Origin: an uncultured Planctomycetales bacterium
GTDB lineage: Bacteria; Omnitrophota; Gorgyraeia; Zapsychrales; Fredricksoniimonadaceae
Direction: 5' to 3'
Length of the DNA stretch: 64,000 nucleotides
NCBI GenBank assembly: GCA_964520655.1
Contig: CAZFNI010000007.1
Location: 6,398-70,397, forward strand
Shown: positions 4,888-51,598 of the stretch, one piece after another
How the letters are laid out: every line of letters starts with the position of its first letter
Numbering within the stretch: the stretch's first letter is position 1
The notes under the pieces: generated by a model
The model's database searches: none
What the model was told of the DNA's origin: nothing
What the model saw: the letters and a program-made list of their open reading frames with translations, nothing else
Translations under genes and position numbers: made by a program

Positions 4888-4944
4888 TATCTATTGAATC
4901 CATTTTAGCATTGATATCGCTTTAAATATGTGCAGAATAAAAGC

Positions 4945-31116: not shown

Positions 31117-33701
31117 AGAACCAGTGCGCAAGACGTGATATTGGCATCGCCTTTATCCTGACCATGGCGGCTTATGCGCTGCTTTATCCTGATCAGTTCG
31201 TGTTCGGCAGCCGCCGTTTTTTGCAAGGGCAGGATACGGAGATACATTTAGAGAGCCTATTTACGCTGGTATCCCATGTTTTCCAGGGCGGGGTGCAGCT
31301 GTACGACCGTTTCGACGGGTTCAATAATGTATACACCCTCATGACCGCTGGCTTATATTCAGTTCTGGATATGATCTTAGCCGGCATATATGTATTGTTA
31401 AGCCCTTTAAGCGATCATTCCGGAAGTTTCCTGCACCAGGTCTATTCCGTCGGGTATTACGCCGGAGCTGCGGTGATACGCATCATGGGGGGCTATTTAT
31501 TGCTGGGCAAGTTCACGCGAAACAGGGCGGCCCGCGTCATCGCGCTGGTGCTGGCGAATCTGTTCCTCTCGTCGTTTTTGATCAACCGCGGCATGCAGGT
31601 CAATAACTTGTATAGTTATTTGCCGCTGCTTTTATATTTTGTCCTTAATTTTTTTGAGAACTTTGATCTAAAAGATGCGTGTCTCGCCGCGCTGGTCATG
31701 GCATTGGCGGTGAGCAATTCGCCATTCTTGGGCTTAAGTTATTTTTATTTGATCGTCCATTTTTTTATGATCAGCTGTGCAGCCGTCTATGCGTATTTTG
31801 CGTTAAAAGATGGCATCAAAGAAAGAACGCTAAGCTGGGAACCAGCTCAATGGGGATATGCCGCCGCTGTTGCAGCGGTCATTGTTATCCTGATCCTGCC
31901 GTACGCGCTGATGCAGTCGGATTTCAAAAATGATTTCTTCATCGCTAATTCAGGTGTTAACGGCACCGTTGGCCGTCTAAAGGCGGCGGGGGTGGACGCG
32001 TATTTTTCTTTCCCCGGTCGTTCCTATGTGAACCCTGGTGAGTTCTTGACCAAAAGTGTTGATTTCACGCTGACCCGATGGGGATCGACATGGATGTTCT
32101 TAGGTGTCGGTATGCTCTTTCTGATCTTAAGCGGACTGGTGCTGTCCCGTCAGAGGTTAAAGGGAGTGATCGTTTGCCTGACGGTCTTTGTGCTGAGCTT
32201 AAATATTCCAGCCAGCAAGGACAGTGTGCCCGGCTTTGCCCACTGGATCAATGTGTTGACAAATCCTTTCCATTTTTTGATCCGCAGCGTCCATATGTCG
32301 ACGCTGTTATGGTATCTCACCTTGACGCCGTTAGTTGCGCTGGGGATAGAGGCGTTGACCGCTTTGGCTGCTGGCCGCCGCGAGGCGGTCCATGCCGGTC
32401 GTCTTTATACATTCCTGGGATTCTTTGCCGGATCGTGTGTGCTGACAGCGTGTTTATCGCCGGGGCGGGTGCAGGGATATGTGCTGCTGCAGGGGGCGCT
32501 TATTGTCGCGACCATGCTTTTACTCTCCACACAGAAGAAGAAAATGAAATGGGCGGCCGCGCTGCTGGGGATCATTTTGATCGCCGGAGAGCTGGCAGCT
32601 CTTAAGAATTACGTGGACGAAGACCTGGATGTGCAGGTGCATTTAAAGCCGCAGGTTTACAGCGGCGTGCGTTCTGCTGAACCAATTTTATTAGATCATC
32701 AAAACCCCAAGGTCTTTCCCAACCGGGCGTATTATAAGAATAGCGCGCAACCCGTCTTTCCGCCGGCCTATACCTATCAGAACACTTACGGCGCCTATTA
32801 CAGTCATTATCCATTGATGGAGCGTTTTTTGCGTCCTCCTTCGCTGTATGAACCAAGGCCGCTGGTATTTAAAGGTTTCGCCCAAGATGTCGCGAACGCG
32901 GCGTATTTGCAGAAAGTCGGCCTGATGATGTTCTTTGTGCCGTATGCCATGGATGATTCGCGGGTGCGCATGGAAGACTTGTTGTCCGCGGGGCTTAATG
33001 GGCAGGTGGTGCTATTGCCCGCGGGTTCGCCTGGGATGGTTCCGCCCGATCAGGCGATCGTACCCCAGCCGATGCCAGTGGTCAGGACCCAGGAATTCGC
33101 ATTAGATCCCAAAAAAGCCAAACGTATACAGAAGGGGACTAATATCGAGTGGCATTTGACGCTTCCAGGCGGCTTCCCTTCTTATGTGACATCGACGGTG
33201 TTCACTCAAGATCAAGATGATCTTCAGCTATTGATGGGAGAGAGGGCATTAACACAGGTTCAAGGCGGGTTGGTTGTTCCCTACAGCTTTGATGTACAGA
33301 ATATCAAGGAGGGCAAGGCGGTGGTCCTGCTGCCGCAAGGCATTGATCCAGCATCGTCAGGGCTTAAGCTGGTGTACAAAAGATCAGACGGTATTAAGGA
33401 GATCTGGAAGAATACCCATGATGCCTGGGGTTTGACGATCGAAGCTCCCGTGGATGGATGGGTGGTGTTCCACTATCCGTATGATCCAAAATGGAAGATC
33501 ATTGTCGACGGAAGAACAGAAGCGCTTTACAAGGCGGATCATTATTATTGCGCTGTGCGTGTATCCAAAGGCGAACATCGGCTTTTACTCCAGTATTGGC
33601 CGGGGACGATCATACGGCCGTTGTTATTGTTATCAGCACTGCTTAGCATCGGTGTATTTTTTTATGTATTTAAAGAAGGGTATCGGCGTGAGTGTCCATA
33701 G
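31113..33701 (+). CDS. Family B3: YfhO-like polytopic membrane protein (862 aa)
   Basis: ATGA overlap. Motifs: FQGGVQLYDRFDGFNNVYTLMTAGLYS...LLSPL and AHWINVLTNPFHFLIRSVHMSTLLWY. The C-terminus is PYDPKWKIIVDGRTEALYKADHYYCAVRVSKGEHRLLLQYWP followed by a terminal TM helix. Confidence 0.6.
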   Translation: MKNQCARRDIGIAFILTMAAYALLYPDQFVFGSRRFLQGQDTEIHLESLFTLVSHVFQGGVQLYDRFDGFNNVYTLMTAGLYSVLDMILAGIYVLLSPLSDHSGSFLHQVYSVGYYAGAAVIRIMGGYLLLGKFTRNRAARVIALVLANLFLSSFLINRGMQVNNLYSYLPLLLYFVLNFFENFDLKDACLAALVMALAVSNSPFLGLSYFYLIVHFFMISCAAVYAYFALKDGIKERTLSWEPAQWGYAAAVAAVIVILILPYALMQSDFKNDFFIANSGVNGTVGRLKAAGVDAYFSFPGRSYVNPGEFLTKSVDFTLTRWGSTWMFLGVGMLFLILSGLVLSRQRLKGVIVCLTVFVLSLNIPASKDSVPGFAHWINVLTNPFHFLIRSVHMSTLLWYLTLTPLVALGIEALTALAAGRREAVHAGRLYTFLGFFAGSCVLTACLSPGRVQGYVLLQGALIVATMLLLSTQKKKMKWAAALLGIILIAGELAALKNYVDEDLDVQVHLKPQVYSGVRSAEPILLDHQNPKVFPNRAYYKNSAQPVFPPAYTYQNTYGAYYSHYPLMERFLRPPSLYEPRPLVFKGFAQDVANAAYLQKVGLMMFFVPYAMDDSRVRMEDLLSAGLNGQVVLLPAGSPGMVPPDQAIVPQPMPVVRTQEFALDPKKAKRIQKGTNIEWHLTLPGGFPSYVTSTVFTQDQDDLQLLMGERALTQVQGGLVVPYSFDVQNIKEGKAVVLLPQGIDPASSGLKLVYKRSDGIKEIWKNTHDAWGLTIEAPVDGWVVFHYPYDPKWKIIVDGRTEALYKADHYYCAVRVSKGEHRLLLQYWPGTIIRPLLLLSALLSIGVFFYVFKEGYRRECP

Positions 33702-35904
33702 AAAGATCTTTTATTCGTCCCTGTTAGGTATCCTGACAGCCCTTCAGGCGACAGTCCTGTTAGCCAGGCTCTTGTCCTTGAGAGTTCCGTCCTCGGCATT
33801 GACTGCCGATGTGGTCGGCGAGTGGCAATCCCTGCTGCGCCCGGAGTGGGAGACGGTCATTTACCGCGGATTTGTTTTTTTTGCTATTACTGGAGCATTT
33901 CTTTGGGTGAATATCCTTCGATTTATCCCGCGTTTACCCCGCTTTGCGGCCGCGGAGCTGGTCGTGACCGTCGCGATCCTGGGGACATGTTTCAAAGCGG
34001 CGGTCTATGCCGGCCATCCGCAGCTGGCAGGCAATTGGCAGATCATTCTTCTGGCCTCAGCGGTGCTTCTTAAAGTTTTCTGGCCGTGGGTGGATCGTCA
34101 GACAGAGGCGTTGGCGGAATTTGCTCTCAATAAGAGCAACAGGAAATACATCGATCTGCTGCTGACGGTCCTGATGCCCCTGGTGATCGTTTTGATCATC
34201 GATGTCCCCAATGTCCAGGGCGCTGTGGCGCGATTTTTTGTCGGCGAGCAATTCCATCATAACGACAGTTTTATTTATGGGCCGGTCCTCGCTTATGCCA
34301 GCGGCGCGAAGCTTGATGTGGATGTCATCAGCCAGTACGGGGTGGGTGTCGGCGCTATTTTTGGGACTTTGTCCTCGATGATCGGGGGCGTCAGTTATGA
34401 AAATGGGCTGACGCTGATGGTCTGGGGCGCGATCATCTATTATGTGCTGCTCTTCTTCCTGCTAAGGTCCTGGATCAACAATACAGTGCTGGCCTGTGCA
34501 GGGGTTTTTCTGGCGCTTAAATTCCAAATGTTCAATGCGGGCGTTTATCCGTTCGCTTTCACCTATGGCAGCGCGACAGTGCTGCGCGCCTGGTTTGATA
34601 TTGTTGTGCTTTGGTCCTTATGGGCGCACAGCCGCTGTCCCAGGATGCGCTGGCTAATATTGGCCGCCGCCGCATGCGGAGCGCAGTTATTCTATATCCC
34701 CTCCGACGGGGCTTATGTGTCGGCGATGCTGGCGTTCTATATCTTTGTCTGGGCCTGGCTTAACGGGGGGGTCAGAAAACTCTGGATCCTGGTCGTGCTG
34801 CTGGCTGCGCCGGCAATAATGCTGCTGTTGATGGGGATATTCCTGGGACCATCGGTCGGGCAAAAGATCTTTTGGGAGAACCTCAAAGAATTCGTCAGCT
34901 ATTTCCTTAACGGTTTTGGGCTGACGCCGATCGACAGCGGTTTGATCGAGCGCAAGTTCCTGGCATCCCTGATGGGCTTTGTGCTGCCGGTCCTTTATGT
35001 ACTGACGTTGTTGTTCACCGGCGCGCTTTTGCTGCTGCGCAAGATCCATCTGCGCAACCTTTTTGCCTGTACGCTCAGCGTTTACGGGTTATGTCTCTAC
35101 CATTACTACGTGGCCCGATCAGGCCCGTCGAGCTATTATGTGGTTTCTGTTCCTTTTGTGATGCTCTTGATATTTTGGATCAGCAAAGCCGGCGCGCTGT
35201 TCCCGGAAAATCTCCGCCGTATGACAAGTCCGGCGGTTCTTCTGGTCAGCGTGTTGATGCTGCTGCTTAATCAGAATTTTATTGCCTATCCTAATCGCTT
35301 TAACGTCTCGCGAAATCCTTTGACCGATCCCGCTGTTGCCCAGCCGCTGGATTCCGGCCTGCCGTATTTCTATCATTTATATAGAGGCTACAATGATCAA
35401 CTGAAAGTCCCGCTCAATGCTTTAGGTCAGCAGGATGAGGGACTCTATGCCGAATCGGATTTCCGCTCAGATGACCAGCTTTTGTCCTATTATCGCGCGG
35501 AATCGGATTTTTCTGTTGATGCGGCATTGATCGCCCGTTTGACAAAACCTGATGAGCCGGCGGCATTGATCAGCAGTTTTGAGATCAAAATACTCATCGA
35601 TGCCAAACGCCGCCCTTACTTTTATTATTTCCCTCTGGCAATTTCTCATCCGCTGCGTTCCCGGACGCTTGTGCGCAGCAGCATTTACACGAAGGACCAG
35701 CTGACAAAGGTGCTTGAGAAATTAGACCGGGACAAGCCGCCGTATATTTTCGTCGAACGCGTTTTGCTGCAGCGTCCGCTGCCGGAAGTATTTTATTTTT
35801 ATTATTCCAGCATGCTGTATTTAGTCGACCATGTGATGGCCAACTATGAGGTCGCCCAACAGGGGAAATATATTGTTGCCATGCGTTATAAAGGAGCCCG
35901 ATAG
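33688..35904 (+). CDS. Family C2: uncharacterised large polytopic membrane protein (about 738 aa)
   Basis: The track ORF opens at 33454 inside the upstream gene. GTG 33688 is preceded by AAGAAGGG at 33673-33680; ATG 33664 is an alternative start. Motifs: RFFVGEQFHHNDSFIYGP....DVDVISQYGVGVG and ALKFQMFNAGV. The C-terminus is AALISSFEIKILIDAKRRPYFYYFPL....KPPYIFVERV.....NYEVAQQGKYIVAMRYK. Confidence 0.6.
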   Translation: MSVHRKIFYSSLLGILTALQATVLLARLLSLRVPSSALTADVVGEWQSLLRPEWETVIYRGFVFFAITGAFLWVNILRFIPRLPRFAAAELVVTVAILGTCFKAAVYAGHPQLAGNWQIILLASAVLLKVFWPWVDRQTEALAEFALNKSNRKYIDLLLTVLMPLVIVLIIDVPNVQGAVARFFVGEQFHHNDSFIYGPVLAYASGAKLDVDVISQYGVGVGAIFGTLSSMIGGVSYENGLTLMVWGAIIYYVLLFFLLRSWINNTVLACAGVFLALKFQMFNAGVYPFAFTYGSATVLRAWFDIVVLWSLWAHSRCPRMRWLILAAAACGAQLFYIPSDGAYVSAMLAFYIFVWAWLNGGVRKLWILVVLLAAPAIMLLLMGIFLGPSVGQKIFWENLKEFVSYFLNGFGLTPIDSGLIERKFLASLMGFVLPVLYVLTLLFTGALLLLRKIHLRNLFACTLSVYGLCLYHYYVARSGPSSYYVVSVPFVMLLIFWISKAGALFPENLRRMTSPAVLLVSVLMLLLNQNFIAYPNRFNVSRNPLTDPAVAQPLDSGLPYFYHLYRGYNDQLKVPLNALGQQDEGLYAESDFRSDDQLLSYYRAESDFSVDAALIARLTKPDEPAALISSFEIKILIDAKRRPYFYYFPLAISHPLRSRTLVRSSIYTKDQLTKVLEKLDRDKPPYIFVERVLLQRPLPEVFYFYYSSMLYLVDHVMANYEVAQQGKYIVAMRYKGAR

Positions 35905-38502: not shown

Positions 38503-39902
38503 GGAACGTATCCGTAGTTGCTGCGGCACTGTTCCAGGATCCCGACGAGATATTGGCAGTAGATCTGGTTGCTGCGGCGCGTGATGGCGTGATGGATGAG
38601 CTGGTGCTGGTGCTCTGTGCGCAGGCCCTTGAACCGTCGTGGGTCAAGTCGCTGCCCGATGCTGTGCGCGTGATCATTGTCCGCAGCCCGGCCCAGGCGG
38701 GGAAAGAGGGAGCGGTTAAACGCGGGCTTTTTGCCGCAACGGGGGACTGGGTTATTACCTGGGAAGATATGCGCGTTTCATTCAAGGAAGTCTTGTCTTA
38801 TGCGTTTAAACACAAGGATTCAGGGATCGTTTTAGGGATGTTCTATGCGCATGGGGAGAGACGGGTGCATCAGCATTTGACCCGTTGGTTGCTTGGAGAA
38901 GGCATTGTCGAGGGAGATTGCGCGTTTCGCTGTGTCCCTGGAAAATATTTAACGCCTGTGCTGGGCCGCATTTATCTGGAGCGCGACGGGTTTAATACGG
39001 AGTGGTGTTATGTGGCGCATCAGCTGGGATTTCCGCTGACAGTTGTGCCTGTGATCGTGCCGTGGCGCTTTGACCGGATGGACATCATGGCCTATGTGAA
39101 TCTCTGGCGCATCCGTCTCTGGCATCACACGCCTGTTAATACCAGCGATGAACATATGTCCGACCATGATGTGGCTCAGATGTATGCCCAGGAAAGTCGT
39201 CATTGGTGGTTTACGGCCAAGGCCGCTTTTATGGAGAAGATCTTAACACAATGGGTGCCTATCCAAGATCCATTTGTTCTCGATGCGGGCTGCGGCACGG
39301 GGCATAATATGCTGTATTTGGCTAAACAGGGCAGCTATGTTGGCGTGGATGTTTCCGGCAAAGCCTTGAGTTTCTGTCAGACGAACGGGCACACGCGTCT
39401 GGTACAAGCCGATCTTTTAGGCTTGCCGTTTAAGCCTGAAAGTGTGGATGTGATCCTTTCTTTGGATGTGGTCGAACATGTCGGCAATCCCTGGGGCTTG
39501 ATCCGTCAATACAAGCGTGTGCTGAAAAAGGATGGCTATTGCGTCATTGCTGTCCCGGCATACGGCTTCTTATTCGGCCCTCACGACGAAGCCTTGTCCC
39601 ATTATAAACGTTACAGTTCTGGGATGATACGTTCATTGATCGAAGAAGCAGGTTTTGAGGTGCTGCATGAGAACTATTTGTATTGCATCCCATTTTTCCC
39701 GGCAGCCACCGTCAGGCTTTTTCGTAAAATATGCTGCCGTGATCAAAAGCCCAGCACGGACATGTATTTAATGCCCCTGCCGTTCGTTAATGAGCTGATG
39801 CAAAAACTCATGGCATTGGAAGTCTGGCTGTTAGGCAAAGTGCCGATGCCTTTTGGTACATCGATCGTCGTAGTGGCGAAAAAAAGCGGGGCACATGGGT
39901 AA
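38499..39902 (+). CDS. Fusion protein: GT2-like (GT-A fold) N-terminal domain plus a class I SAM-dependent methyltransferase C-terminal domain
   Basis: ATGA overlap at 38499; the track ORF from 38397 lies inside the upstream gene. The N-terminal half resembles GT2: VSVVAAAL..., GKEGAVKRGLFAATGDWVITWEDM, ...FRCV... The position where DxD is expected reads WED. The C-terminal half has VLDAGCGTGHNMLYLAKQGSYVGVDVS, then DLLGLPFKPESVDVILSLDVVEHV, then LKKDGYCVIAVP. Confidence 0.65.
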   Translation: MRNVSVVAAALFQDPDEILAVDLVAAARDGVMDELVLVLCAQALEPSWVKSLPDAVRVIIVRSPAQAGKEGAVKRGLFAATGDWVITWEDMRVSFKEVLSYAFKHKDSGIVLGMFYAHGERRVHQHLTRWLLGEGIVEGDCAFRCVPGKYLTPVLGRIYLERDGFNTEWCYVAHQLGFPLTVVPVIVPWRFDRMDIMAYVNLWRIRLWHHTPVNTSDEHMSDHDVAQMYAQESRHWWFTAKAAFMEKILTQWVPIQDPFVLDAGCGTGHNMLYLAKQGSYVGVDVSGKALSFCQTNGHTRLVQADLLGLPFKPESVDVILSLDVVEHVGNPWGLIRQYKRVLKKDGYCVIAVPAYGFLFGPHDEALSHYKRYSSGMIRSLIEEAGFEVLHENYLYCIPFFPAATVRLFRKICCRDQKPSTDMYLMPLPFVNELMQKLMALEVWLLGKVPMPFGTSIVVVAKKSGAHG

Positions 39903-42372
39903 TCCCGGGCAAAAGAACTCACAGACATTATTGTTGATCGCCGCGATCGTGCTGGCCGGCATGGAGCTGGCATTGATCACGGGCGCGCTGTTGTCTTTTG
40001 TCCCGATCGACCAGCGGGCATTATTGGCGGATGTTTTTGCCAAAGATGTGCACATCATCAAAAAAGACTGGAAGATGCTTGTCTATCATGGCGTGATCGC
40101 GGCCATCGCGTTTTTGGGGTGGCTGGCCCTGACCCGGTTTAAGCAATATTGTTTTGAGCAGGACAAGCGGCGGGAATTGGCTCTGTTGTGCAAAAGCAGC
40201 GCGGCCTGGATCACGCTGATGGTCTACGCATTATTTTTTGTGATCAATGATCCTCGTCCCACATGGGCCTGGCAGACCTTCGGCCTGGCCGCGATCGGCG
40301 CCGTGTTAACGAAATTATTCTTTCCTGAATTAAATAATTTATTCCAGGGTCCAGCTGTTTTTAAAAAAGCGGCGATATTTGGCGGCTTTCTTTTTACCGG
40401 AGTTTTTGTTCTGTATAACGGAGGCGCTCGGGCGGCTGGGACATTGGCCTTGTGGTCCGTATTCCTAGGCGGGGCCATTGGCGCGGGATGGTTATTAGGC
40501 CGAACGGATCTAAGTCCAATTGCCAGGAAGTTGACGCGGCTTTCCCCGTTGGCGGATGTGTTGATATGGCTTTGCAGCAAAAGTGTTCTGGCCAACACTG
40601 CTTTTGCCGCAGGCGGTATTTTCCTTGTGTCGCTTTTGGCTATCGTCGACCCTGTCGCAGTCCTGGCACAGACGGCCTTTGGCGAGCACTATTACCATTT
40701 TGACCTGATGCTCATGGCCGGTGCCTATGCGTTTGGCAGCGGCAACACGCTGGGCGTCGATCAGATCGCGTATTACGGCATTGGTCTGCCTGCTTTAGTC
40801 GGGGGTTTGTCCAAAGCATTCTTTGGGCAGGTCACTTATGAGGGTGTCTTTGCCATCTATTGGGGATTGACGATCGTTTATTACGCGGCTTTCTATGCCG
40901 TCATGCGCTACTGGCTTGGCAGCGTTCTGTTAGCATTTGCCGCCGTGATGCTCGCGGTCAAATGGCAGGTTTTTTATTCCTTGTCTTATCCGGTCTCTGC
41001 CATTTATCCCAATAGCTCTCCACTGCGCTGTTTTTTAGACATTCCGACATTTATATTGCTGTGGATGTTCATCAAAAGCGGGAAGACAAGATACCTGTGG
41101 TCTGCCGCTGCCCTGACAGGAGTGGCAATGGTTTTCATGCCAACGACTGGCGTCGATCTGTATCTGGCCCTGGTGGCATTCGCGGGGATGTTTTTTATTC
41201 TTCGAAAGATCCAAAAGATAACGATCGATCGCCTTCGCGTTGCCACGGCGCTGCTGATCCCGTTGGCCTGTGCATTGATCGGATTCTTCTTTCTGTGCGG
41301 CAAGGCCGTGTTCGCTGGCCAATTCTGGAAAGACCTGATGTTCTATCCGCATTTGTTCACCAACGGGTTTTATGACATCTGGTTCTGGGATAATTTAATG
41401 CACGGCCATTATGTCGATTTTGCCGTCGGCGTGCTTTTTCCGGTCCTGTATCTATTCACGATGCTGTGGATAGGGTTTCGTTTGTACCGCCGGGAGGGAT
41501 CGCTTGAGGAAATGATCACCTTTGCCGTTTGCGCATATGGCTTAAGTCTGTATCATCACTACCTGGTGTTGTCGCTGCAGAATAATTATTTCATGCGCGC
41601 GGTCGTTTTTATCTGGGTGATCTTCTATTGGGTCAAAGGCGCGATGAATGCGTGTTCATCATCAAAGGCCAGGGCGCTGTGGGCGTGGGGTTTAGCTGCT
41701 GGATGCTTGTTCTTCCTGTTAACCGATAAGCTTTATCAGGCGTTCCCGAATTATTGGAATTCATTGAACGTGCGTAATCCCATCGTCGATAAACGCACTG
41801 CCCGGGGTTTACCTGAGGACGGGCGGCCTTACTTTTTCCATCAAGAGGCGTGGACCGCAGAAAAAGATAAGCTCGCGGCAAATTCTGTGGGAACAACACA
41901 GGAGCGTATCTTTTTTGAATGGCAGGTGCCTGACCATGAAACGTTAAAAGCGCTTTATGCCCAGGAGTTTGATTTTAAGGAGGATGTGGCCCTGATCAGG
42001 GCCTTGACCACGCCGTCAGAAAAGACCGCGCTGCTCTCAAGCTTCGAGATCGAGATATTGCGTCAGGCCGGGCGCCGTCCGTACTTTTTTTATTTCCCTG
42101 TCATTTCTTCGCGCGGCATGGATGTGCGCACCTTCCCGCACACCAACATTTACACCAAGGGCATGCAGGCGCGGATGATCCAGGAGATCGAGAGCTCAAT
42201 GCCGGAATATATTTTTATGGAACGGATATTTTTAAGCGATGCGCTTCCGGCTTCCTACGCGGTCGACCACGAGGAGCTCTTGGGTGTCATCGCGCATATC
42301 CGCAAACATTATCAACCCTTCGCCCAGGGCAAGTACTTGACGGCCATGAAGAGGGTCCATGTCCAGGATTAA
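39895..42372 (+). CDS. Family C3: uncharacterised large polytopic membrane protein (825 aa, longest member)
   Basis: 8-nt overlap with the upstream gene. Motifs: QTAFGEHYYHFDLMLMAG....GVDQIAYYGIGLP and AVKWQVFYSL. The C-terminus is TALLSSFEIEILRQAGRRPYFFYFPV....MPEYIFMERI....HYQPFAQGKYLTAMKR. Confidence 0.6.
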   Translation: MGNPGQKNSQTLLLIAAIVLAGMELALITGALLSFVPIDQRALLADVFAKDVHIIKKDWKMLVYHGVIAAIAFLGWLALTRFKQYCFEQDKRRELALLCKSSAAWITLMVYALFFVINDPRPTWAWQTFGLAAIGAVLTKLFFPELNNLFQGPAVFKKAAIFGGFLFTGVFVLYNGGARAAGTLALWSVFLGGAIGAGWLLGRTDLSPIARKLTRLSPLADVLIWLCSKSVLANTAFAAGGIFLVSLLAIVDPVAVLAQTAFGEHYYHFDLMLMAGAYAFGSGNTLGVDQIAYYGIGLPALVGGLSKAFFGQVTYEGVFAIYWGLTIVYYAAFYAVMRYWLGSVLLAFAAVMLAVKWQVFYSLSYPVSAIYPNSSPLRCFLDIPTFILLWMFIKSGKTRYLWSAAALTGVAMVFMPTTGVDLYLALVAFAGMFFILRKIQKITIDRLRVATALLIPLACALIGFFFLCGKAVFAGQFWKDLMFYPHLFTNGFYDIWFWDNLMHGHYVDFAVGVLFPVLYLFTMLWIGFRLYRREGSLEEMITFAVCAYGLSLYHHYLVLSLQNNYFMRAVVFIWVIFYWVKGAMNACSSSKARALWAWGLAAGCLFFLLTDKLYQAFPNYWNSLNVRNPIVDKRTARGLPEDGRPYFFHQEAWTAEKDKLAANSVGTTQERIFFEWQVPDHETLKALYAQEFDFKEDVALIRALTTPSEKTALLSSFEIEILRQAGRRPYFFYFPVISSRGMDVRTFPHTNIYTKGMQARMIQEIESSMPEYIFMERIFLSDALPASYAVDHEELLGVIAHIRKHYQPFAQGKYLTAMKRVHVQD

Positions 42373-44860
42373 AACCATCACATGGGGACCGGCGCAATGG
42401 ATGTTCGCCTGTATTATGGGGGCTTTTGTTCTTTTGGCGCTATTCTTCCCGACGCTGTTGATCACGCGGAAAGTCAGTTTCATCTACATGCAGGACTATC
42501 TCAATGATTACAAAGCTGTCCATCTGCTTATTCAATTCTTTTATCAGAAAGGCATACAGCTGTGGGATTTTTTCAGCCAGATGCCGCACACCTATTTCTT
42601 TGCGACATTCGGGACATTCAAGGTCGCCAATTTATTGACCGCTTTGGCCTATGTAGGCACATCAGGCTTCTTTTATGATCAAGCCAAATTGCTGCACGAT
42701 GTCTTCGCCTGGGTCTATGTTCCGGCGCTGCTGACCTTAAGGGCGTGCGGCATGGTGATCGTTTTGAGGCTGCTTGGATTTGGCAAAGTTTTCGCGGCGG
42801 CCTTTGGGCTGGCTGGTGCATTATTGTGGGCAAAGCCGGCGATCGTGATCGGCACGTTCTATCAAAGCTATACACCATTGATCATGCTGCTTATTTTGGC
42901 GTGGGTGACATTTCAACAGGGCCGTTATCTGCTGCTCTTGGCATTGATGCTGGCGCACGCCTTCACGCAAGGCATGGTGCATGCGTGCTATTTGTATTTA
43001 GGGATACACGGGTTGCTATTGTCGGCAGTCATCTATCAGTGTTTCCTTGGGAAGAAGGAGGCGTGGCGATTTTCATTCAAAGAAGCGGCGATCGCGATCG
43101 TTCTGATCGGTTTGATGCTCTGGCCGTACGCGGCCATGATCAAATTATCTTTTGCTGACATCATGTTCGCGCCGGGGGAGAGCCGGCTTAATGGATTTTT
43201 CGATCTGAAGTATTATTTCAATGCCATGAAGATCGACCAGGTGCGCGTGGGGACATTTGTCGCAGACAGCCTGAGGTTCGATGATATCAGCGGGATCAAA
43301 TATTTCTTTGGTCTTGGTTTCTTCTGGTGCGCGCTCACCGGATGGGTCATGGCGGCGGACAGGCGTAAATGGATCTTTGCCGGCGGTCTGATATTGTTAT
43401 GGGCTGTCAACACGCCGCGTTTCGGGTTTAACCCGGGGATGATCGGCCATTGGATCAATGTGCTGACCAATCCCATGAGCACCATGGTCCGTTCCTATGA
43501 AATGGCTGCCTGCGCGGCCGTGGGCTATATGCTCCTGCCGTTGTGCGCCTGGGGGATGATCTGGTTGTGGGAACACGACGGAGTGAAGGTCAGTGCGTAT
43601 AAAATGAAAATATGGTGGCTGTTGACGGCATGTCTGCTGGCGTTAGCGTTTGGGATCAATGTGCCGGTTCAGGTGCGTTTATATACGATCATTCTGAGCG
43701 TATTGATCGCGGGAGCGCTTTGGATCAAGACATACACGATGTTTAAAGTCGGCCGTAAAAAATATTCTGGCTGGTCATTCAGGGGATTGCTGATCATCAT
43801 GATCGCGTTAGACGCGTTCTTGAGCATCGTGCAGATCAACCGGTTCTTTGCCGCGGGAGAGGTCGCAACACCGCCGCTGGCGGGATCGGCAAGACATTAT
43901 GGTCTTAACCTTGATCATCAAAACCCGAGAGTGATGGGCTTTCCCTATAATGCGGATATGATCGATACAGGCGCGACGTCGCATGTGTGGAGTTTGCGGG
44001 ATATCTCGCCGGGCTACAGCCGTGTGATCAACCGCTTTATCGCTTTTGAAAAGCCAGGTGACCATTTCCCCCGTCATCAGGCTTATGCGGGATGGTATCA
44101 GAATGAACGCGTGATGGAATATGTTAAGCGTTATCCGGCATTGGCTTATTTTGTCCCGTCAGATGGAAAAAATGAGGCGTTGATCATCTCAGGGGAGCGG
44201 CCGGGAGATCTTGGCGGGCAATTTGTACAAGAGAGCCTGTTGCAAAGTCCGATCGTGGTAAATTCACAGGCCCATGGTTATTGGAGCATGTCATTTGCGC
44301 TTAGCGATCCATTTGCCCATATTGTAAGCAATCAAGTGTCCGCGTTCCCGGCGGCCAGAGTTTTTGTTGAGACAGATGGCCAACAGCATGAATTGGAAGC
44401 CTCCCAGGGACGATTATTGGGGTCTGGGATGTTTGATATCAATAATATCTATCAGGGCAAGATGCTGGTATCATTGCCCAGAGGAGTTTTGCCACAGGCG
44501 GTTAAGGTGCATGTATGGCGCTACCAGCAGGAGACTGGGATCGTCGGAGTTGATTCCTTCACACATGACCGTTTGAGCGCGGCATTCGCCGCGCCGCACA
44601 ATGGATGGGCGGTATGGCACATCCCGTATGATACGAAATTTGTGATCATGGAAGATGGACGCAAGGTCGATTACAGACGCACGACTGCCGGCTTTATCCG
44701 CTGGCCGATCAAAGCCGGACGGCACAAGGTGGTGATCGATTATTGGCCACAGGGCTGGTGGCTGAGATGGGGGCTTGTGTGCTCGACGGTGGTGTCCATG
44801 GGGTGTTTGGTGTACATCCTTAACCTGTTATGGGTAAGATCGTTCCGATATGAAAAATAA
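42359..44860 (+). CDS. Family B5: YfhO-like polytopic membrane protein (833 aa, most divergent member)
   Basis: Motifs: YQKGIQLWDFFSQMPHTYFFATFG and GHWINVLTNPMSTMVRSYEMAAC. The C-terminus is PYDTKFVIMEDGRKVDYRRTTAGFIRWPIKAGRHKVVIDYWP followed by a terminal TM helix. 14-nt overlap with the upstream gene. Confidence 0.55.
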   Translation: MSRIKTITWGPAQWMFACIMGAFVLLALFFPTLLITRKVSFIYMQDYLNDYKAVHLLIQFFYQKGIQLWDFFSQMPHTYFFATFGTFKVANLLTALAYVGTSGFFYDQAKLLHDVFAWVYVPALLTLRACGMVIVLRLLGFGKVFAAAFGLAGALLWAKPAIVIGTFYQSYTPLIMLLILAWVTFQQGRYLLLLALMLAHAFTQGMVHACYLYLGIHGLLLSAVIYQCFLGKKEAWRFSFKEAAIAIVLIGLMLWPYAAMIKLSFADIMFAPGESRLNGFFDLKYYFNAMKIDQVRVGTFVADSLRFDDISGIKYFFGLGFFWCALTGWVMAADRRKWIFAGGLILLWAVNTPRFGFNPGMIGHWINVLTNPMSTMVRSYEMAACAAVGYMLLPLCAWGMIWLWEHDGVKVSAYKMKIWWLLTACLLALAFGINVPVQVRLYTIILSVLIAGALWIKTYTMFKVGRKKYSGWSFRGLLIIMIALDAFLSIVQINRFFAAGEVATPPLAGSARHYGLNLDHQNPRVMGFPYNADMIDTGATSHVWSLRDISPGYSRVINRFIAFEKPGDHFPRHQAYAGWYQNERVMEYVKRYPALAYFVPSDGKNEALIISGERPGDLGGQFVQESLLQSPIVVNSQAHGYWSMSFALSDPFAHIVSNQVSAFPAARVFVETDGQQHELEASQGRLLGSGMFDINNIYQGKMLVSLPRGVLPQAVKVHVWRYQQETGIVGVDSFTHDRLSAAFAAPHNGWAVWHIPYDTKFVIMEDGRKVDYRRTTAGFIRWPIKAGRHKVVIDYWPQGWWLRWGLVCSTVVSMGCLVYILNLLWVRSFRYEK

Positions 44861-45323
44861 ATCTTTTGATGTCTTTGATCCGGTCTTTACCGGTTTATTA
44901 GCTGCCGCGGCGATCCTGTGCGCGATGGAAATGCTCATTATCGCCGGTGTTGTTTTGTTCTATATCCCCTTTACGCCTGACCCATCCCTGCAGGATATAT
45001 TCTTCCATTACCGCAAAGGATATGTTCCCGAGCAGGAATTATTATTGTACGGCGTTGGGATCGCGATGGCGGTGGTCTTCTTTGTCGGCGCTGCGATCGT
45101 TTTTGCGCGGCGCGTTTCGGATGTTTTGTTTCAAAGGTCATTGATACGTTATGCGGTGGTGCATACGGCCGTTGTGATTTCGATGACGGCATGTGTTTTT
45201 AAATTGATCGTCACACCGTCGGATGGCATCGCGTGGGCATGTCTTTATACAATGTTGGGCGTTTCTTTGGGACTTAACATATTTTGGAGCGAGATCGATC
45301 AATGGTTTGGGCGGACCTTTTAG
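44850..45323 (+). CDS. Family C4, N-terminal fragment (157 aa) of a split or frameshifted gene
   Basis: It aligns with the first ~150 aa of other family C proteins (..IPFTPDPSLQDIFFHYRKGYVPEQELLLYGVGIAMAVVFF.. and ..NIFWSEI..). It ends at TAG 45321-45323, exactly where the paralogs continue. Confidence 0.5.
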   Translation: MKNKSFDVFDPVFTGLLAAAAILCAMEMLIIAGVVLFYIPFTPDPSLQDIFFHYRKGYVPEQELLLYGVGIAMAVVFFVGAAIVFARRVSDVLFQRSLIRYAVVHTAVVISMTACVFKLIVTPSDGIAWACLYTMLGVSLGLNIFWSEIDQWFGRTF

Positions 45324-47068
45324 CGGTTCTCGGGATCTTTCTGGTGCTGTTCATCCCTGACCCGTCGTCGACGGTGGCGCAGCTGTTCTTGGGCGACTAT
45401 TTCCATGACTGGGATGTGGTCTTCATGGGGCCGGTCTACGGATTGTTCTGCGATCTTGTTCCCAACATCGATGTCAATACGACCTATGGGTTTGGATTAA
45501 GTCTGCTCATCAAGTGGGGGATGCAGCTTTTGGGCGGATTTGATTATACGCATGCGCTTGTCGTATTAGTCTGGCTGGGAATTATTTATTTTGTCGCCTG
45601 GTATTTTTTGCTGCGCCGGCTGTTTGAGCATCGGCTGCTGGCCTTTATCGCCATTTTGCTTGGCATGCGTTTTCAGATGTTTGTTTCGATCCTGATCCCC
45701 ATCGTCTGGAACGATATCCAATGCTCAGTGCTGCGTTTTTATTTTGACGCGGCCTTTTTCTGGAGTTTATACCTGCATCAGAACAAAGGTGGTCAGCGTT
45801 ATCTTTGGCTCATGGGGTTATCTGCGGCGCTGGGGATCTTCCATATGCCGACCATGGGGATATTTTTAGCGATGACCATGGTCGTTTATCTGGCCTTCTT
45901 GACCCTTGATGGATATTTTAAGGAAGGGATGAAATCCTTGGGCTCAGCGGCCTCCAATGCCCGGCCTTTGATCTTTATCCCGGTCGTCGTCTTCATCTTG
46001 TATTATGCCATTGTTAGGGACCATATTTTCACCGGAACATTCTGGGCCAACACCGCCGGATTCGCGTCCTATTTTGCTAAAGGATTTTTCTATAGCCCGA
46101 TGCTTGACCCGCTTAAACGGGGCAATTATCTGATGGTCATCGGCGGGATCTTGATCCCGCTGTGGTATCTGTTCTGCCTGTTCTTTTTCGGCTGGCGCTA
46201 TCTTACCCCTGCCAGAAGATCCAGGGATATATGGATCGTTCTGCTGTCCGTGTATGGTCTGGGGATATTCACGTATTTTGTCGGGATGTCCCATAAATAT
46301 TCGACGGTGTCTCTGCCGGCGACATTTGTTTCCTTTCTTGTCCTTGATGAGATCTTGGCCCGCGCCTCGCGGCACTGGAAATTCCGGATCACGTGGACTT
46401 TGCTTGCGGTGAGTATTTATGCTCTTGCGGTCGAGCCTATGTTCAAGGCCTACCCCAACTGGCTTAATATTTCCCGCGATCCGGTCGTTGACGAGCGCGT
46501 GACCATGAAAACTCCCAATGGAAAACCGTATTTTCAGCAGCTGGCCATCGATTTCCCAGAGTGGATCAAGGTCCCCTTCAATTCGCTGGGGGAGACGGAT
46601 GAGAAGTTCAAATATGAGAAAGATTTCGTCAACAGCGACGCGTTAAAGTCCTATTACCGTCTGGAGACCGCGTTTGTCGAGGACGCGGGCTTGATCCGTC
46701 GTTTGACCAGCCCCGGCGACAGGGTGGCCTTATTATCCAGTTTTGAGGTGATGATCCTTTCTAAAGCACAGCGTAAACCACTGTTCTATTATTTCCCATT
46801 GCTTAATTCCCATCCCATGCGCATGCGAAATTTCGTGGTCACGACCATATTTAGCTACCCGCAATTGCGCCAGAGCATTGACCAGTTAAACGCGGCCATG
46901 CCGCCCTATATTTTTATGGAGAAGGTGTTCTTGACGGAGCAGGTCCACCCCTGGTATTTTGAACAATTCGAGGATTTGATCGCGCTGATCCGCTGGATCA
47001 AATATTATTATACGCCGGTCGAACAGGGCAAATACTTGGTGGCCATGAAAAGGAAGACCGATGGTTGA
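45302..47068 (+). CDS. Family C4, remainder (about 588 aa) of a split or frameshifted gene
   Basis: A different frame is open from 45284, with ATG at 45302 (MVWADLLAVLGIFLVLFIPDP..). It carries the loop motif QLFLGDYFHDWDVVFMGP....DVNTTYGFGL, then GMRFQMF. The C-terminus is VALLSSFEVMILSKAQRKPLFYYFPL....MPPYIFMEKV....YYTPVEQGKYLVAMKR. Confidence 0.55.
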   Translation: MVWADLLAVLGIFLVLFIPDPSSTVAQLFLGDYFHDWDVVFMGPVYGLFCDLVPNIDVNTTYGFGLSLLIKWGMQLLGGFDYTHALVVLVWLGIIYFVAWYFLLRRLFEHRLLAFIAILLGMRFQMFVSILIPIVWNDIQCSVLRFYFDAAFFWSLYLHQNKGGQRYLWLMGLSAALGIFHMPTMGIFLAMTMVVYLAFLTLDGYFKEGMKSLGSAASNARPLIFIPVVVFILYYAIVRDHIFTGTFWANTAGFASYFAKGFFYSPMLDPLKRGNYLMVIGGILIPLWYLFCLFFFGWRYLTPARRSRDIWIVLLSVYGLGIFTYFVGMSHKYSTVSLPATFVSFLVLDEILARASRHWKFRITWTLLAVSIYALAVEPMFKAYPNWLNISRDPVVDERVTMKTPNGKPYFQQLAIDFPEWIKVPFNSLGETDEKFKYEKDFVNSDALKSYYRLETAFVEDAGLIRRLTSPGDRVALLSSFEVMILSKAQRKPLFYYFPLLNSHPMRMRNFVVTTIFSYPQLRQSIDQLNAAMPPYIFMEKVFLTEQVHPWYFEQFEDLIALIRWIKYYYTPVEQGKYLVAMKRKTDG

Positions 47069-48308
47069 ACGAAAGATCATCAGCATCATTACAGCCTTGG
47101 TACTCGTCGAGTCCTTGCAGGCGCTTGCGTTGATCGCGCATATTTATAGTTTTATCCCCATCTCCCTCAAAGGCCCGATCCTGCCAGGGCTTGAGCCGGA
47201 AAGGGAGAGTTTTCTCTACATCATTTTCCTGGCCATGGTTTTTGTGCTGACGATCGTGCTGACGGCGCTGTTATATAAGCCGCTTAAGTCCGCTGCTTTT
47301 CAACAGAGAGCATTGAAGTTCGTATATTTGGAAACGCTCTGGATGGGACTGATGCTGTTTGCCTTCTTTAAATGGGTAAGCTACCAGCATCCTTTCTATA
47401 ATATTCTGCCGCTGGAGAACGGACGATGGGTATATCCGTTCTTTTACGCAGTTGCCTTTTTAAGCTTTTTGACAAAGATATTCTGGGCGGAGATCGTCAG
47501 GTTTTGGGAGAGCTGGGAACAGGGGCGGGGCCGCAGACTGGTGACAAAAGAAAAACCATTGGCTGTTTATGCCGCCGGGATAATGTTTGCGGCCGCATTG
47601 TTGTACCCCAATGTGCCGCTTGCCTCGCAGGTCATTGCCTCCTGGAGCCGTTTTGCGCCATGGCAGAATTTCTGGCTGACGCGTTTTTTTCTTGAACGGG
47701 GATTCTCTCCTGAGGCGATCATTGCGTGTTTATACGGTCTTAATATGATCGTCCTGGGCGTGATCTTTGTCGGAGCGCATCGCTACTTGAAGAATTCCTG
47801 GCTGGCCTTTGGTGTCCTCATGCTGACGATCCAAATGACGTTTTTCCATTACGGCACATCACCGGTGTGCTGGAATGCTCCGCAGAATACGCTCATCAAT
47901 TTCGGCTGGGACTTTGGCTTTATGAAAGACGCCGCGCATTTGCCCATGTTCGCTGCCTTGCGTGTGCGCCAGTTTCTTTCATTCTTTATGGGATATGCCA
48001 TCGCGGTGTTGTATGTCTTCTCTATATTATATTGCTGGGGCAAAGATAGAATGGCGGTGATCTTAAGTGGCCTTGGCTTACTCTTATATACCCGCTATAT
48101 CGCCCATGCCGATGTATTTGCTTTTGGGGCGGCATCCTTCCCGGCAATGATCTTGTCTGCGCACTGGTTGAGAATTGTAATAAGGCGATTTTTTCCCAAA
48201 CAGGAAAATGCTGTTTATATCGCGCTTGCCGCAACGTCAGTTTTCATGCTGTTAACCAACCGGGTATTTGTGACCTACCCGCATTTTTGGATGAACAATG
48301 TTCCATAA
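47061..48308 (+). CDS. Family C5: truncated or degenerate member (415 aa) with the membrane domain only
   Basis: The N-terminus is colinear with family C (..FIPISLKGPILPGLEPERESFLYIIFLAMVFVL.., ..KIFWAEI.., ..TIQMTFFHYGTSPVCW..). It lacks the (E/D)Q.HH.D loop segment. It stops at ..FVTYPHFWMNNVP, which is where the C-terminal soluble domain begins in the paralogs. Confidence 0.5.
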   Translation: MVERKIISIITALVLVESLQALALIAHIYSFIPISLKGPILPGLEPERESFLYIIFLAMVFVLTIVLTALLYKPLKSAAFQQRALKFVYLETLWMGLMLFAFFKWVSYQHPFYNILPLENGRWVYPFFYAVAFLSFLTKIFWAEIVRFWESWEQGRGRRLVTKEKPLAVYAAGIMFAAALLYPNVPLASQVIASWSRFAPWQNFWLTRFFLERGFSPEAIIACLYGLNMIVLGVIFVGAHRYLKNSWLAFGVLMLTIQMTFFHYGTSPVCWNAPQNTLINFGWDFGFMKDAAHLPMFAALRVRQFLSFFMGYAIAVLYVFSILYCWGKDRMAVILSGLGLLLYTRYIAHADVFAFGAASFPAMILSAHWLRIVIRRFFPKQENAVYIALAATSVFMLLTNRVFVTYPHFWMNNVP

Positions 48309-50445
48309 AGAAGATCTTAAGATCAGCGTATTGAGTATCTGCAGCGCGATGCAAGTGGCCGTGCTCGTGGCCCAGGCACTGTCAGCGTTGAATGCGGCCT
48401 CTGGGGTTTATGACGGCATTGTCTATGTCGCTTTTTTGGTCAGTAGTGTCTTTGTGTTCGCTCTGTTAAAAAAGCAGCGGGACTTAGCTTGGAATGTGTG
48501 GATGGAAATGCTGGTGACGTTTCTGTTGCTAAGCGCTGTCTTTAAAAGCACCATCTATGACAATAGTCCGTTTCTGGCCAATGCCGCTGTGCTTTCGCTG
48601 CTTACGATCGCGGCTGCGATAAAAGTATTCTCGCTTGAGATATCGTCGGGATTGTTAAGGCTATCCGCGAAAGCGCGTGTAATGTCGTCATTTGGGCCGA
48701 TCGCTTCCTGTGCCGCCATCGCCGCATTGGTCTATGTGCCCAATCTAAATGCGGTGCTGGCGGAGGTCTTTATCGGCGAGCAGGCGCATCATTTGGACTT
48801 TTTTGTGATGTCTCCGGGATGGTCATGTTTTAACGGCGGTAAGCCCTACGTGGATGTGATCTCTCAATACGGGGTGGGCATACCGGTTATTTTTGCTAAC
48901 TTAAGCCGCATTCTTGGCGGGTTTGATTATTTGACCTTCCTTCAGGTGAACATGGCTTTCGGTATCTTGTATTTTATATTGTTCTTTTGGGTGACGCGCG
49001 CATGGCTTGGCAGCACGATGCTTGGGTTTGCCGCATTCCTGGTGTGTTTTCGTCTGCAAATGTTCCATTACGGGGTCAGCCCCCTGTGCTGGATCTATCC
49101 ATCCTCAACACCTATCCGTTTTGGGCTGGACATCCTCTGGTTGTGGCTGTTGTGGCGCCATCTGCAGACCGGCAGGGGGATCTTTCTGATCTTAGCCGCT
49201 TTGTACAGCGGGTTTGCTGTTTATTTCATGACATCGACGGGTATTTTTATCATGGTCACGTTCTACGCATATTTAGCAGGGCTGCTGGTACTGCAAGGAC
49301 TCCGCAAAGAAAAAATATTATCGCCCAGGCTTATGGCAGCGGCTGCTATCATCCCCGTGGTATCGGCCTTTGTATTCTTTTGGATCACCCTGGGTGGACA
49401 TGTTGTCAGTCAAACGTTCTGGCGGAATGTCGTCGAGTATATGTCATATTTCTCCAACGGACGCGGCGCTTTGCCTATCTTTGAAAGTTTGAAATACCGC
49501 AACTATTGGGTCGCGCTGATGGCTCTGGCTGTTCCTTTATTGTATGTGGCGACCGCCGTCAGCGTCGGGATCGCGTTATGGAAAGAAAAAGTCGATCGCA
49601 AATATTTGTTTGTTGTCACGATCGCGGTCTATGGGTTGGTCAATTATCAATATTTCGTTGTGCGTTCGGCGATGACCAGTTATTACAGCAATGCGGTGCC
49701 TTTCGTGCTACTGTGCGCGTTCTGGGCTGACATTGCCGTCAAACATTACATGCCGGCGAAAAAGGGGAAGATCTACGGACTGTGCGCCATTCTGGCCTTC
49801 TATGCACTGGCCACCAATCACAATTACATCAGCTATCCCAATCTGTTCAATTTCAGCCGTAACCCTTTGGTTGACATCACCGTGGCCCAGCGTTTCCCTG
49901 ACCGGCAGGGCTATTTCCATCATTTGGTCAAACATATCAAGGAAGAGGATAAGGTCGCCTTTAATGCGGCGGGCGACGGGGACGAGCATTTGATGACGGA
50001 GGATAGCTTTAAGACGGATAAGGAGTTGATCGATTTTGTTAAAAGCGAGAATGATTTCAGCCTCGATGCCGCGCTGATCGATTCTCTTGTGTCTTCCAAA
50101 GAACCCACGGCGGTCTTAAGCAGTTTTGAAACGAAGATCCTGATCCAGGCCAAGCGGGCGCCGTTCTTTTACCATACACCGCTTATCACCTCCCAGCCGA
50201 TGCGGGTGCGCTACTTTCCGGCGGATGCCGCGCACAGTCCAAGTTTTTTGGCAGACACACTGCGCCAGCTGGAGGATAAGAAACCGGCTTATGTATTTAT
50301 CGAGAATGTCTTTTTGCAGGAGATCATTCCGGCAAGCTACAGGGAGTCAAACGCAAATATATTGACAATCATCGCCTATATCAGGCAGAATTATACCCCT
50401 TTTAAGAGGGGACAGTATTTGACAGCAATGAAGAGACATGAATAA
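48298..50445 (+). CDS. Family C6: uncharacterised large polytopic membrane protein (715 aa); last gene of the array
   Basis: Motifs: EVFIGEQAHHLDFFVMSPG....YVDVISQYGVGIP and CFRLQMFHYGV. The C-terminus is TAVLSSFETKILIQAKRAPFFYHTPL....KPAYVFIENV....NYTPFKRGQYLTAMKR. Confidence 0.6.
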   Translation: MFHKEDLKISVLSICSAMQVAVLVAQALSALNAASGVYDGIVYVAFLVSSVFVFALLKKQRDLAWNVWMEMLVTFLLLSAVFKSTIYDNSPFLANAAVLSLLTIAAAIKVFSLEISSGLLRLSAKARVMSSFGPIASCAAIAALVYVPNLNAVLAEVFIGEQAHHLDFFVMSPGWSCFNGGKPYVDVISQYGVGIPVIFANLSRILGGFDYLTFLQVNMAFGILYFILFFWVTRAWLGSTMLGFAAFLVCFRLQMFHYGVSPLCWIYPSSTPIRFGLDILWLWLLWRHLQTGRGIFLILAALYSGFAVYFMTSTGIFIMVTFYAYLAGLLVLQGLRKEKILSPRLMAAAAIIPVVSAFVFFWITLGGHVVSQTFWRNVVEYMSYFSNGRGALPIFESLKYRNYWVALMALAVPLLYVATAVSVGIALWKEKVDRKYLFVVTIAVYGLVNYQYFVVRSAMTSYYSNAVPFVLLCAFWADIAVKHYMPAKKGKIYGLCAILAFYALATNHNYISYPNLFNFSRNPLVDITVAQRFPDRQGYFHHLVKHIKEEDKVAFNAAGDGDEHLMTEDSFKTDKELIDFVKSENDFSLDAALIDSLVSSKEPTAVLSSFETKILIQAKRAPFFYHTPLITSQPMRVRYFPADAAHSPSFLADTLRQLEDKKPAYVFIENVFLQEIIPASYRESNANILTIIAYIRQNYTPFKRGQYLTAMKRHE

Positions 50446-50875: not shown

Positions 50876-51598
50876 TTAGCTGCGGTATTGACCCTTAATG
50901 AGATTCCATTTGATGCGGACAAGGTCGCGCAGGGATGTCAGGGCGTCGCGCAGGGCTCGGACCTGGGAGCTGTTGTGATGGTTCCAGACAACCGGCAGCT
51001 CTCCAATCCTAAAATTTTTGGCTATGGCAATGCCGATAATTTCCGTGTCATAGGCCCACTGGTCGATCTCCTGACGGGAGAAGATGTCTTTTGAAGCGGC
51101 AGCGGTGAACATTTTAAATCCGCAGGTGAAATCCTGGATGTTACGCCCGACGCAGATCTTGGAAAGCAGCAGGAAGAATTTACCCAAAATTTCCCGGTGC
51201 AGCGGCTGTCGGATCTTTTGCGCATGAAAGTGTGATTTGCGTTCCCCAAGCAGAACGTCGTATTGTCCGGTGCGCATCGCCGCAAGAAAATCATCCACAG
51301 CATCCAGAGAGGTGGAGAGGTCGACGTCCATGAACAGATGGAAACGTCCTCGGGCTTGAAGCATCCCCAAACGTACGGCATGGCCTTTGCCGGCATTGCG
51401 TTCATAGCTTAAGATCTTAAACGTATCCGCCGGCAATTGGCGCATGCATTCTAAAGTATTGTCCCTCGAGCCGTCATTGACCAAAATGATCTCGTGGGTG
51501 ACCTTAAGCGATCTAAGCTTTTGTTGGATCAACAGCGCGTTGCGCTGGATGTCGGCGGCTTCATTGAATGCCGGCAGGATGACAGATAGTTCGATCAT
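50876..51598 (-). CDS. GT2 glycosyltransferase, polyprenyl/dolichyl-phosphate sugar synthase-like (DPM1/Alg5/GtrB-CsbB catalytic-domain type, no TM tail)
   Basis: Motifs: LSVILPAFNEAADI, HEIILVNDGSRDNT, NAGKGHAVRLGM, FMDVDLS (the DxD motif) and FTCGFKMF. 240 aa. Convergent with the tRNA-binding gene. Confidence 0.8.
   Translation of the reverse strand: MIELSVILPAFNEAADIQRNALLIQQKLRSLKVTHEIILVNDGSRDNTLECMRQLPADTFKILSYERNAGKGHAVRLGMLQARGRFHLFMDVDLSTSLDAVDDFLAAMRTGQYDVLLGERKSHFHAQKIRQPLHREILGKFFLLLSKICVGRNIQDFTCGFKMFTAAASKDIFSRQEIDQWAYDTEIIGIAIAKNFRIGELPVVWNHHNSSQVRALRDALTSLRDLVRIKWNLIKGQYRS

Follow-up and report, generated by a model that had tools for sequence, protein, structure and literature searches.

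A family C membrane protein gene divided into two overlapping reading frames in seven bacterial lineages

We analyzed a 64,000-nucleotide stretch of DNA (the window) from an uncultured bacterium assigned to the Omnitrophota (contig CAZFNI010000007.1 of assembly GCA_964520655.1). It encodes several paralogs of a family of large polytopic membrane proteins, here called family C, one of which is present as two overlapping open reading frames (ORFs), ORF1 and ORF2. This division, the overlap of 22 nucleotides (nt) and the normal combined length of the two products had been noted in an earlier, sequence-only reading of the window, and they are confirmed by the ORF list, the sequence and BLASTP. In this study, we describe the locus, its counterparts in other genomes, and the most probable origin and expression of the two frames.

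The split locus and its unsplit relatives

The features of the locus are the following (aa, amino acids).

44850-45323, plus strand: ORF1, the detached N-terminal module (N-module) of family C, 157 aa, from the ORF list and the sequence
45275-45277, plus strand: TAA in the ORF2 frame, the upstream bound of the only stretch (45278-45323) that permits a frameshift fusion
45286-45293, plus strand: purine-rich GGAGCGAG, 9-16 nt 5' of the ORF2 ATG, formed by the Trp-Ser-Glu codons of ORF1
45302-45323, plus strand: dual-coding overlap of 22 nt, with the ORF2 ATG inside the ORF1 codons caA-TGg
45302-47068, plus strand: ORF2, the family C core, 588 aa from its ATG, in the -1 frame relative to ORF1

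ORF1 stops at TAG 45321-45323; the tail of its protein is ...WSEIDQWFGRTF, and its C-terminal residues are ...EIDQWFGRTF. The ATG of ORF2, at 45302, lies in caATGgtttgggcgg, the peptide that begins there is MVWADLLAVLGIF..., and the frame ends at 47068. The downstream frame had been described as open from 45284. That position is its first listed start codon (TTG), but the frame itself is open from 45278. Both products of the pair are recorded as separate proteins of 157 and 588 aa in an NCBI-derived collection. An exact look-up of the two in the contig index gave no match.

In an all-against-all BLASTP comparison of the window ORFs, family C was found to comprise the genes at 29062-31116, 33454-35904, 39895-42372 and 48298-50445, a short member at 47061-48308, and the split pair. 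ORF1 aligns to residues 15-158 of the 29062-31116 product (expect value (E) 2e-8) and to residues 11-126 of the 39895-42372 product (E 4e-4). ORF2, from residue 4-17 on, aligns to all four full-length paralogs (4/4), beginning at their residues ~135-243 and continuing through the C-terminus, with E values of 1e-53 to 1e-99. In the unsplit proteins, ORF1 has its counterpart in approximately residues 1-150, and the stretch that starts with the first core helix and runs through the C-terminus is matched by ORF2; the sum of the two products is 745 aa (157 + 588), and the family C range is 684-825 aa. When the window paralogs were aligned with MAFFT, the break was located in a linker of variable length between two conserved elements, a 'K-I/V-F-W-x-E-I' motif and the helix that precedes the 'IPDP...GDYFHxWD' loop. 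The arrangement is far beyond chance, because both pieces are collinear with single proteins and the same split recurs in other genomes.

Recurrence of the split and selection on both frames

Among the homologs recovered with ORF2, those at 98, 75, 74 and 65% identity had a length of exactly 588 aa, and the one at 53% had 592 aa. These were followed by unsplit proteins of 733-886 aa, with identities of 51-54% and below. A further locus, L017, was found by an exhaustive search with ORF1, and L014 is identical to L004. Scans of genomes and metagenomes brought in no other contigs. The split is thus counted in seven lineages including the window, and the other six were assembled independently, as metagenome-assembled genomes (MAGs) of Omnitrophota or Planctomycetes-Verrucomicrobia-Chlamydiae (PVC) type and as assemblies of raw runs. 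The loci outside the window are listed below, with identity referring to ORF2.

L001: GCA_041910255.1; ORF1 157 aa, ORF2 588 aa, overlap 22 nt, identity 98%
L002: Logan SRR26835473; ORF1 runs off the contig start, ORF2 588 aa, overlap 22 nt, identity 98%
L003: Logan ERR14369873; ORF1 157 aa, ORF2 588 aa, overlap 13 nt, identity 75%
L004/L005: GCA_964572155.1 and 8 further contigs with identical ORF2; ORF1 154 aa, ORF2 588 aa, overlap 13 nt, identity 74%
L006: GCA_031386565.1, Ca. Omnitrophota; ORF1 157 aa, ORF2 588 aa, overlap 22 nt, identity 65%
L007: Logan SRR24524464; ORF1 142 aa, ORF2 592 aa, overlap 28 nt, identity 53%
L017: ENA ERZ27251983, a 957-bp contig; ORF1 159 aa, ORF2 at least 122 aa (contig end), overlap 25 nt

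In these other lineages, ORF1 is 142-159 aa long and ORF2 588-592 aa, with ORF2 identities of 52-98% where the frame is complete. ORF2 occupies the -1 frame in 7/7 lineages, and the overlap varies from 13 to 28 nt. The ATG is invariant across the seven loci, and its placement is constant: its A is the third position of one ORF1 codon, and its TG opens the following codon, for Trp or Cys, just after an F-W/Y-S-E-I motif. The junction of L001/L002 has two substitutions relative to the window and is otherwise identical to it.

These loci speak directly to the suggestion that a sequencing or assembly indel had artificially broken a single gene. Apart from being a general possibility, this explanation can point to the short T and G runs in the overlap. 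However, different NCBI MAGs, Logan assemblies of distinct sequencing runs and ENA assemblies all contain this junction, in equivalent or identical form. Since independent assemblies share it, a sequencing or assembly error is excluded for practical purposes, and we attach next to no weight to it.

Between lineages, the proportion of synonymous differences (pS) was 0.72-0.88, i.e., saturated, and the proportion of nonsynonymous differences (pN) was 0.30-0.41 for ORF1 and 0.15-0.34 for ORF2. For the closest pair, the window and L001, the ratio of nonsynonymous to synonymous substitution rates (dN/dS) was 0.26 for ORF1 and 0.04 for ORF2. Purifying selection acts on both ORFs. The chance that a 157-codon frame of such composition would stay open is p ~0.001. 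The N-module is consistently the less conserved part of family C, and the ratio of N-module identity to core identity was 0.58-0.91 in the split forms versus 0.52-0.64 in the nearest unsplit relatives. The constraint on ORF1 has therefore not been relaxed by its detachment.

The sequence-only reading had also considered that a recent frameshift mutation turned one paralog into a pseudogene, and had taken the split in any case as a mark of turnover within the paralog array. When seen in a single genome, a frame break within such an array does resemble decay. Yet lineages with protein identities as low as 52-65% have the break in common, neither ORF is disrupted, pN stays far below the saturated pS, and ORF1 is under a constraint unrelaxed relative to that on attached N-modules. 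Because the split is shared by synonymous-saturated lineages and both ORFs are under purifying selection, a recent pseudogene is excluded, in our estimate almost with certainty. A comparison of orthologous loci had been proposed as a check, with conservation of the split in several genomes to be read as evidence against a pseudogene, and such conservation is what the comparison revealed. The split is old and stable, and the idea of turnover is not supported.

In a neighbour-joining tree of the core region, five split lineages group together with 100% bootstrap, within a wider set of unsplit proteins; the deeper relatives and all window paralogs are unsplit. The fission is therefore the derived state.

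Architecture and proposed translation and assembly of the two products

Family C is small, with 21 representatives among 1.8 billion. Searches of Pfam, NCBIfam and PDB sequences gave no match at E <= 1 for ORF1, ORF2, their paralogs or the unsplit family member P0008, and membership in a curated GT-C sequence family (PMT_2, YfhO, STT3 etc.) was not found for family C. P0008 was modelled with AlphaFold from a 23-sequence alignment, with a predicted local distance difference test score (pLDDT) of 84.9 and a predicted template modelling score (pTM) of 0.82. Foldseek matches of this model were ArnT, DPY19, AglB, STT3, PglB, PMT and EmbB, with E values down to 2e-5. Judged by these matches, the polytopic membrane core of family C has a GT-C fold. 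Family C proteins are presumably glycosyltransferases that use a polyprenyl-phosphate-sugar donor. The only segment of P0008 with pLDDT < 50, residues 142-157, is the linker at the split, and the cut, as mapped onto the model, falls in this predicted disordered linker.

ORF1 modelled alone gave a confident unit of four long helices (pLDDT 87.9), for which a structure search found no informative structural neighbour. Hydropathy and positive-inside charge predict four transmembrane helices in ORF1, with the N-terminus, loop 2 and the C-terminus on the cytoplasmic side. ORF2 contains the GT-C-like transmembrane core and a C-terminal soluble domain of ~200 aa. It starts with a helix, followed by an acidic loop that is predicted to lie outside and carries invariant Asp residues (D32 and D38, invariant in alignment A1; in alignment A2, D195 and D214 of this loop are at least 90% conserved). 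They are candidates for the acidic catalytic residues expected of GT-C enzymes in the first extracytoplasmic loop. With an even number of helices ahead of the cut, and with the cut itself predicted to lie in a cytoplasmic linker, both pieces should retain their topology. A possible origin of the N-module as a repeat of the start of the core, suggested by similar loop motifs (IPxxPDP...FFHY compared with IPDP...YFH), found no support, with hmmsearch domain E >= 0.4 against ORF2.

The linker is also altered in other members of the family. P0005 (886 aa) and P0009 (875 aa), at residues ~150-330, and the 39895-42372 product, at residues ~150-250, have insertions of ~100-140 aa exactly at the split linker. 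The inserted segment of P0005 and P0009 partially repeats, in tandem, helices 3-4 of the N-module along with the 'FW' motif (hmmsearch domain E 7e-6 and 2e-3, 10-sequence set). The linker of family C is a hot spot for rearrangement. Several shorter database representatives (P0028-P0033, 208-311 aa) resemble the N-module in their N-terminal part; these may derive from genes cut off at a contig end, or may represent additional truncated or split forms of family C.

How ORF2 is expressed can be considered in the light of the junctions. One proposal was programmed -1 ribosomal frameshifting in the overlap, which would yield a fused protein of ~745 aa, alone or together with the short ORF1 product. 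Consistent with it, the frame of ORF2 is -1 throughout the lineages, and the T-TTT in the L003 overlap would permit single-tRNA slippage. However, a heptamer of the X-XXY-YYZ type is absent from the permitted stretch in every lineage, and the junctions share no slippery motif, the dual-coding ATG-N-TTTGG being all that is common to them. In L004/L005, a TAA stands in the ORF2 frame one codon 5' of the ATG, which leaves 16 nt for a shift. The ORF2 ATG, furthermore, is kept at all seven loci. No conserved downstream stimulatory hairpin or pseudoknot was found when the window was compared with shuffled sequences and the junctions of relatives were aligned: the junction RNA of the window is less stable than its shuffled controls (z = +2.0), and the consensus fold of the alignment is weak (-13.2 kcal/mol, covariation term -0.64, compensatory pairs 1/34). 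Programmed frameshifting is accordingly disfavoured, and we consider it very unlikely.

The reading that we favour, with a probability of roughly 0.8, is an ancient and fixed gene fission in the cytoplasmic linker, with two products that are translated separately. The ancestral family C gene would have been a single one, encoding the N-terminal four-helix membrane module, a short cytoplasmic linker, the GT-C-fold transmembrane core and the C-terminal soluble domain. A change of frame within the linker would then have cut it, such that the upstream piece terminates a few codons past the conserved F-W/Y-S-E-I motif and the downstream piece begins at a -1-frame ATG directly before its first transmembrane helix. 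Two separate polypeptides would be made, with initiation of ORF2 at ATG 45302 within the last codons of ORF1. Translation of ORF2 would probably be coupled to that of ORF1 through the stop/start overlap, as at most other junctions of the operon, where overlaps of 4-26 nt are found. The GGAGCGAG element may serve ORF2 as a Shine-Dalgarno sequence, to judge from its composition and position; coupling or reinitiation is inferred because overlaps are common in the operon, while this element is only partly conserved. Both pieces are expected to insert with their original topology and, most likely, to reassemble into the architecture of the unsplit enzyme. Among the explanations put forward by the sequence-only reading, a genuine two-polypeptide gene coupled through the overlap is thus the one that is favoured, on the basis of the split in seven lineages including the window, the conserved ATG and the purifying selection on both ORFs, with coupling as its conjectural part.

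Several points weigh against this reading. Separate translation and reassembly of the polypeptides are themselves inferred. The Shine-Dalgarno-like sequence is GGAG in the window, L001, L003 and L017, and only GAG in L004 and L006. The shared position of the ATG suggests a single fission event, but all six split forms in the tree are monophyletic with only 19.5% bootstrap, the placement of L007 is weak, and L017 was left out of the tree; accordingly, both one fission event and more than one are compatible with the data.

A related but different explanation is that the fission is real and its products are functionally independent, ORF2 being a self-sufficient GT-C enzyme and ORF1 a small four-helix membrane protein with a role of its own or a shared one, e.g., serving several family C paralogs in trans. 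The two ORFs, however, are adjacent and overlapping in every lineage, even in L006 and L007, where the upstream neighbour is different. No free-standing ORF1 away from ORF2 was seen among the recovered loci, and the module is attached in every full-length family C member. We therefore regard independence of the products as unlikely. Within a genuine fission, a more far-reaching and rather improbable thought is that the four-helix module is a true separate subunit whose expression or stoichiometry is deliberately uncoupled from the GT-C core, e.g., a subunit shared in trans among family C paralogs or a partner that handles the carrier lipid. If this were true, a GT-C-type enzyme that works as a membrane complex of two polypeptides would be known for the first time, in family C.

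For the favoured fission, the consequence for annotation is that two real genes should be kept at this locus, with no merging, pseudogene flag or frameshift 'correction'. The split also marks experimentally useful domain boundaries in an uncharacterised GT-C-fold family that has no Pfam match, and indicates that the N-terminal four-helix module can be detached from the core at a linker that is disordered and cytoplasmic and that, in relatives, also hosts insertions and duplications.

The surrounding array and comparison with known systems

The immediate neighbours of the split pair are the following.

42359-44860, plus strand: upstream neighbour, a family B gene with a YfhO-like C-terminus; overlaps ORF1 by 11 nt
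47061-48308, plus strand: downstream neighbour, the short family C member, 415 aa; overlaps ORF2 by 8 nt

The downstream neighbour encodes an N-module and part of the transmembrane core, without the C-terminal soluble domain. It has counterparts of 413-416 aa in L001, L003 and L004, and because its length is conserved there, it is a stable truncated paralog and not debris.

These genes belong to a ~45-kb array (4930-50445, plus strand) of three families of large polytopic membrane proteins. Family A (genes at 4930, 6761, 8576 and 12695) has members of ~600 aa each and no Pfam match; family B (genes at 20713, 31113, 35905 and 42359) has members of ~830 aa each, with the YfhO-like C-terminus, and these are interleaved with the members of family C. 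Methyltransferases, a sulfatase-like protein, an asparagine-synthase-like protein and oxidoreductases are interspersed, and a GT2 gene is nearby. The array is a cell-envelope glycan cluster, and family C forms large paralog arrays in Omnitrophota-like bacteria. The GT2 glycosyltransferase (~240 aa; 50876-51598, minus strand) lies just past the array and is kept beside it in L001 and L004; it and a membrane-anchored sulfatase/phosphodiesterase-like protein (14547-16529, plus strand) fit a lipid-linked glycan pathway. For the presumed polyprenyl-phosphate-linked sugar donor of family C, the GT2 gene provides genomic context. Also within the array of membrane proteins, a 787-aa protein (10380-12743, plus strand) has a weak spermidine-synthase-like domain of the methyltransferase fold at residues 293-415. 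As for the family C gene at 33454-35904 (plus strand), translation probably begins further downstream, in the vicinity of 33697: taken as the longest ORF, the gene would share 248 nt with the one before it, and nothing in the paralogs matches its first ~80 residues.

The split gene can be compared with several known systems. Programmed -1 frameshift genes, such as dnaX and the transposases of insertion sequence (IS) elements, likewise have a downstream ORF in the -1 frame that overlaps the upstream one. In contrast to them, the slippery heptamer and the stimulatory structure are absent here, and the downstream ORF possesses a conserved ATG of its own. Closer is the fission of genes in bacterial operons with overlapping stop and start codons. 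As in such cases, adjacent ORFs on the same strand are collinear with one protein of relatives, the downstream start lies inside the end of the upstream ORF, and both parts are conserved. What differs is that the protein is a polytopic membrane protein, that the cut lies between helices 4 and 5 in a -1 frame overlap, and that coupling is in this case surmised. The event is otherwise an ordinary gene fission, a small novelty within a known kind of event.

With regard to the GT-C superfamily (Pmt1/2/4, PglB/STT3/AglB, ArnT, ALG3/9/12, AftA/AftB, PimE and DPY19), family C differs by its extra N-terminal four-helix module, which at this locus is a separate polypeptide. We know of no described GT-C enzyme with such a detached module, and a literature search found no description of family C or of split GT-C enzymes.

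By comparison of their organization, mycobacterial Ppm1, the polyprenyl-phosphate-mannose synthase, would provide a close functional analogy to the split family C gene. In Mycobacterium tuberculosis, one fused protein contains both its membrane domain (D1) and its catalytic domain (D2), and in M. smegmatis, M. leprae and C. glutamicum these domains are encoded by two ORFs (Ppm2 and Ppm1), adjacent in M. smegmatis, whose products interact (PMC3485146). In both systems, an enzyme of an envelope-glycan pathway has a transmembrane module that some lineages carry as part of the enzyme and others encode in a separate gene next to it. The two differ in that D2 of Ppm1 is soluble and of GT2 type and D1 has six helices, whereas in family C each piece is an integral membrane protein, the catalytic one being GT-C-like; the two systems have no sequence relationship.

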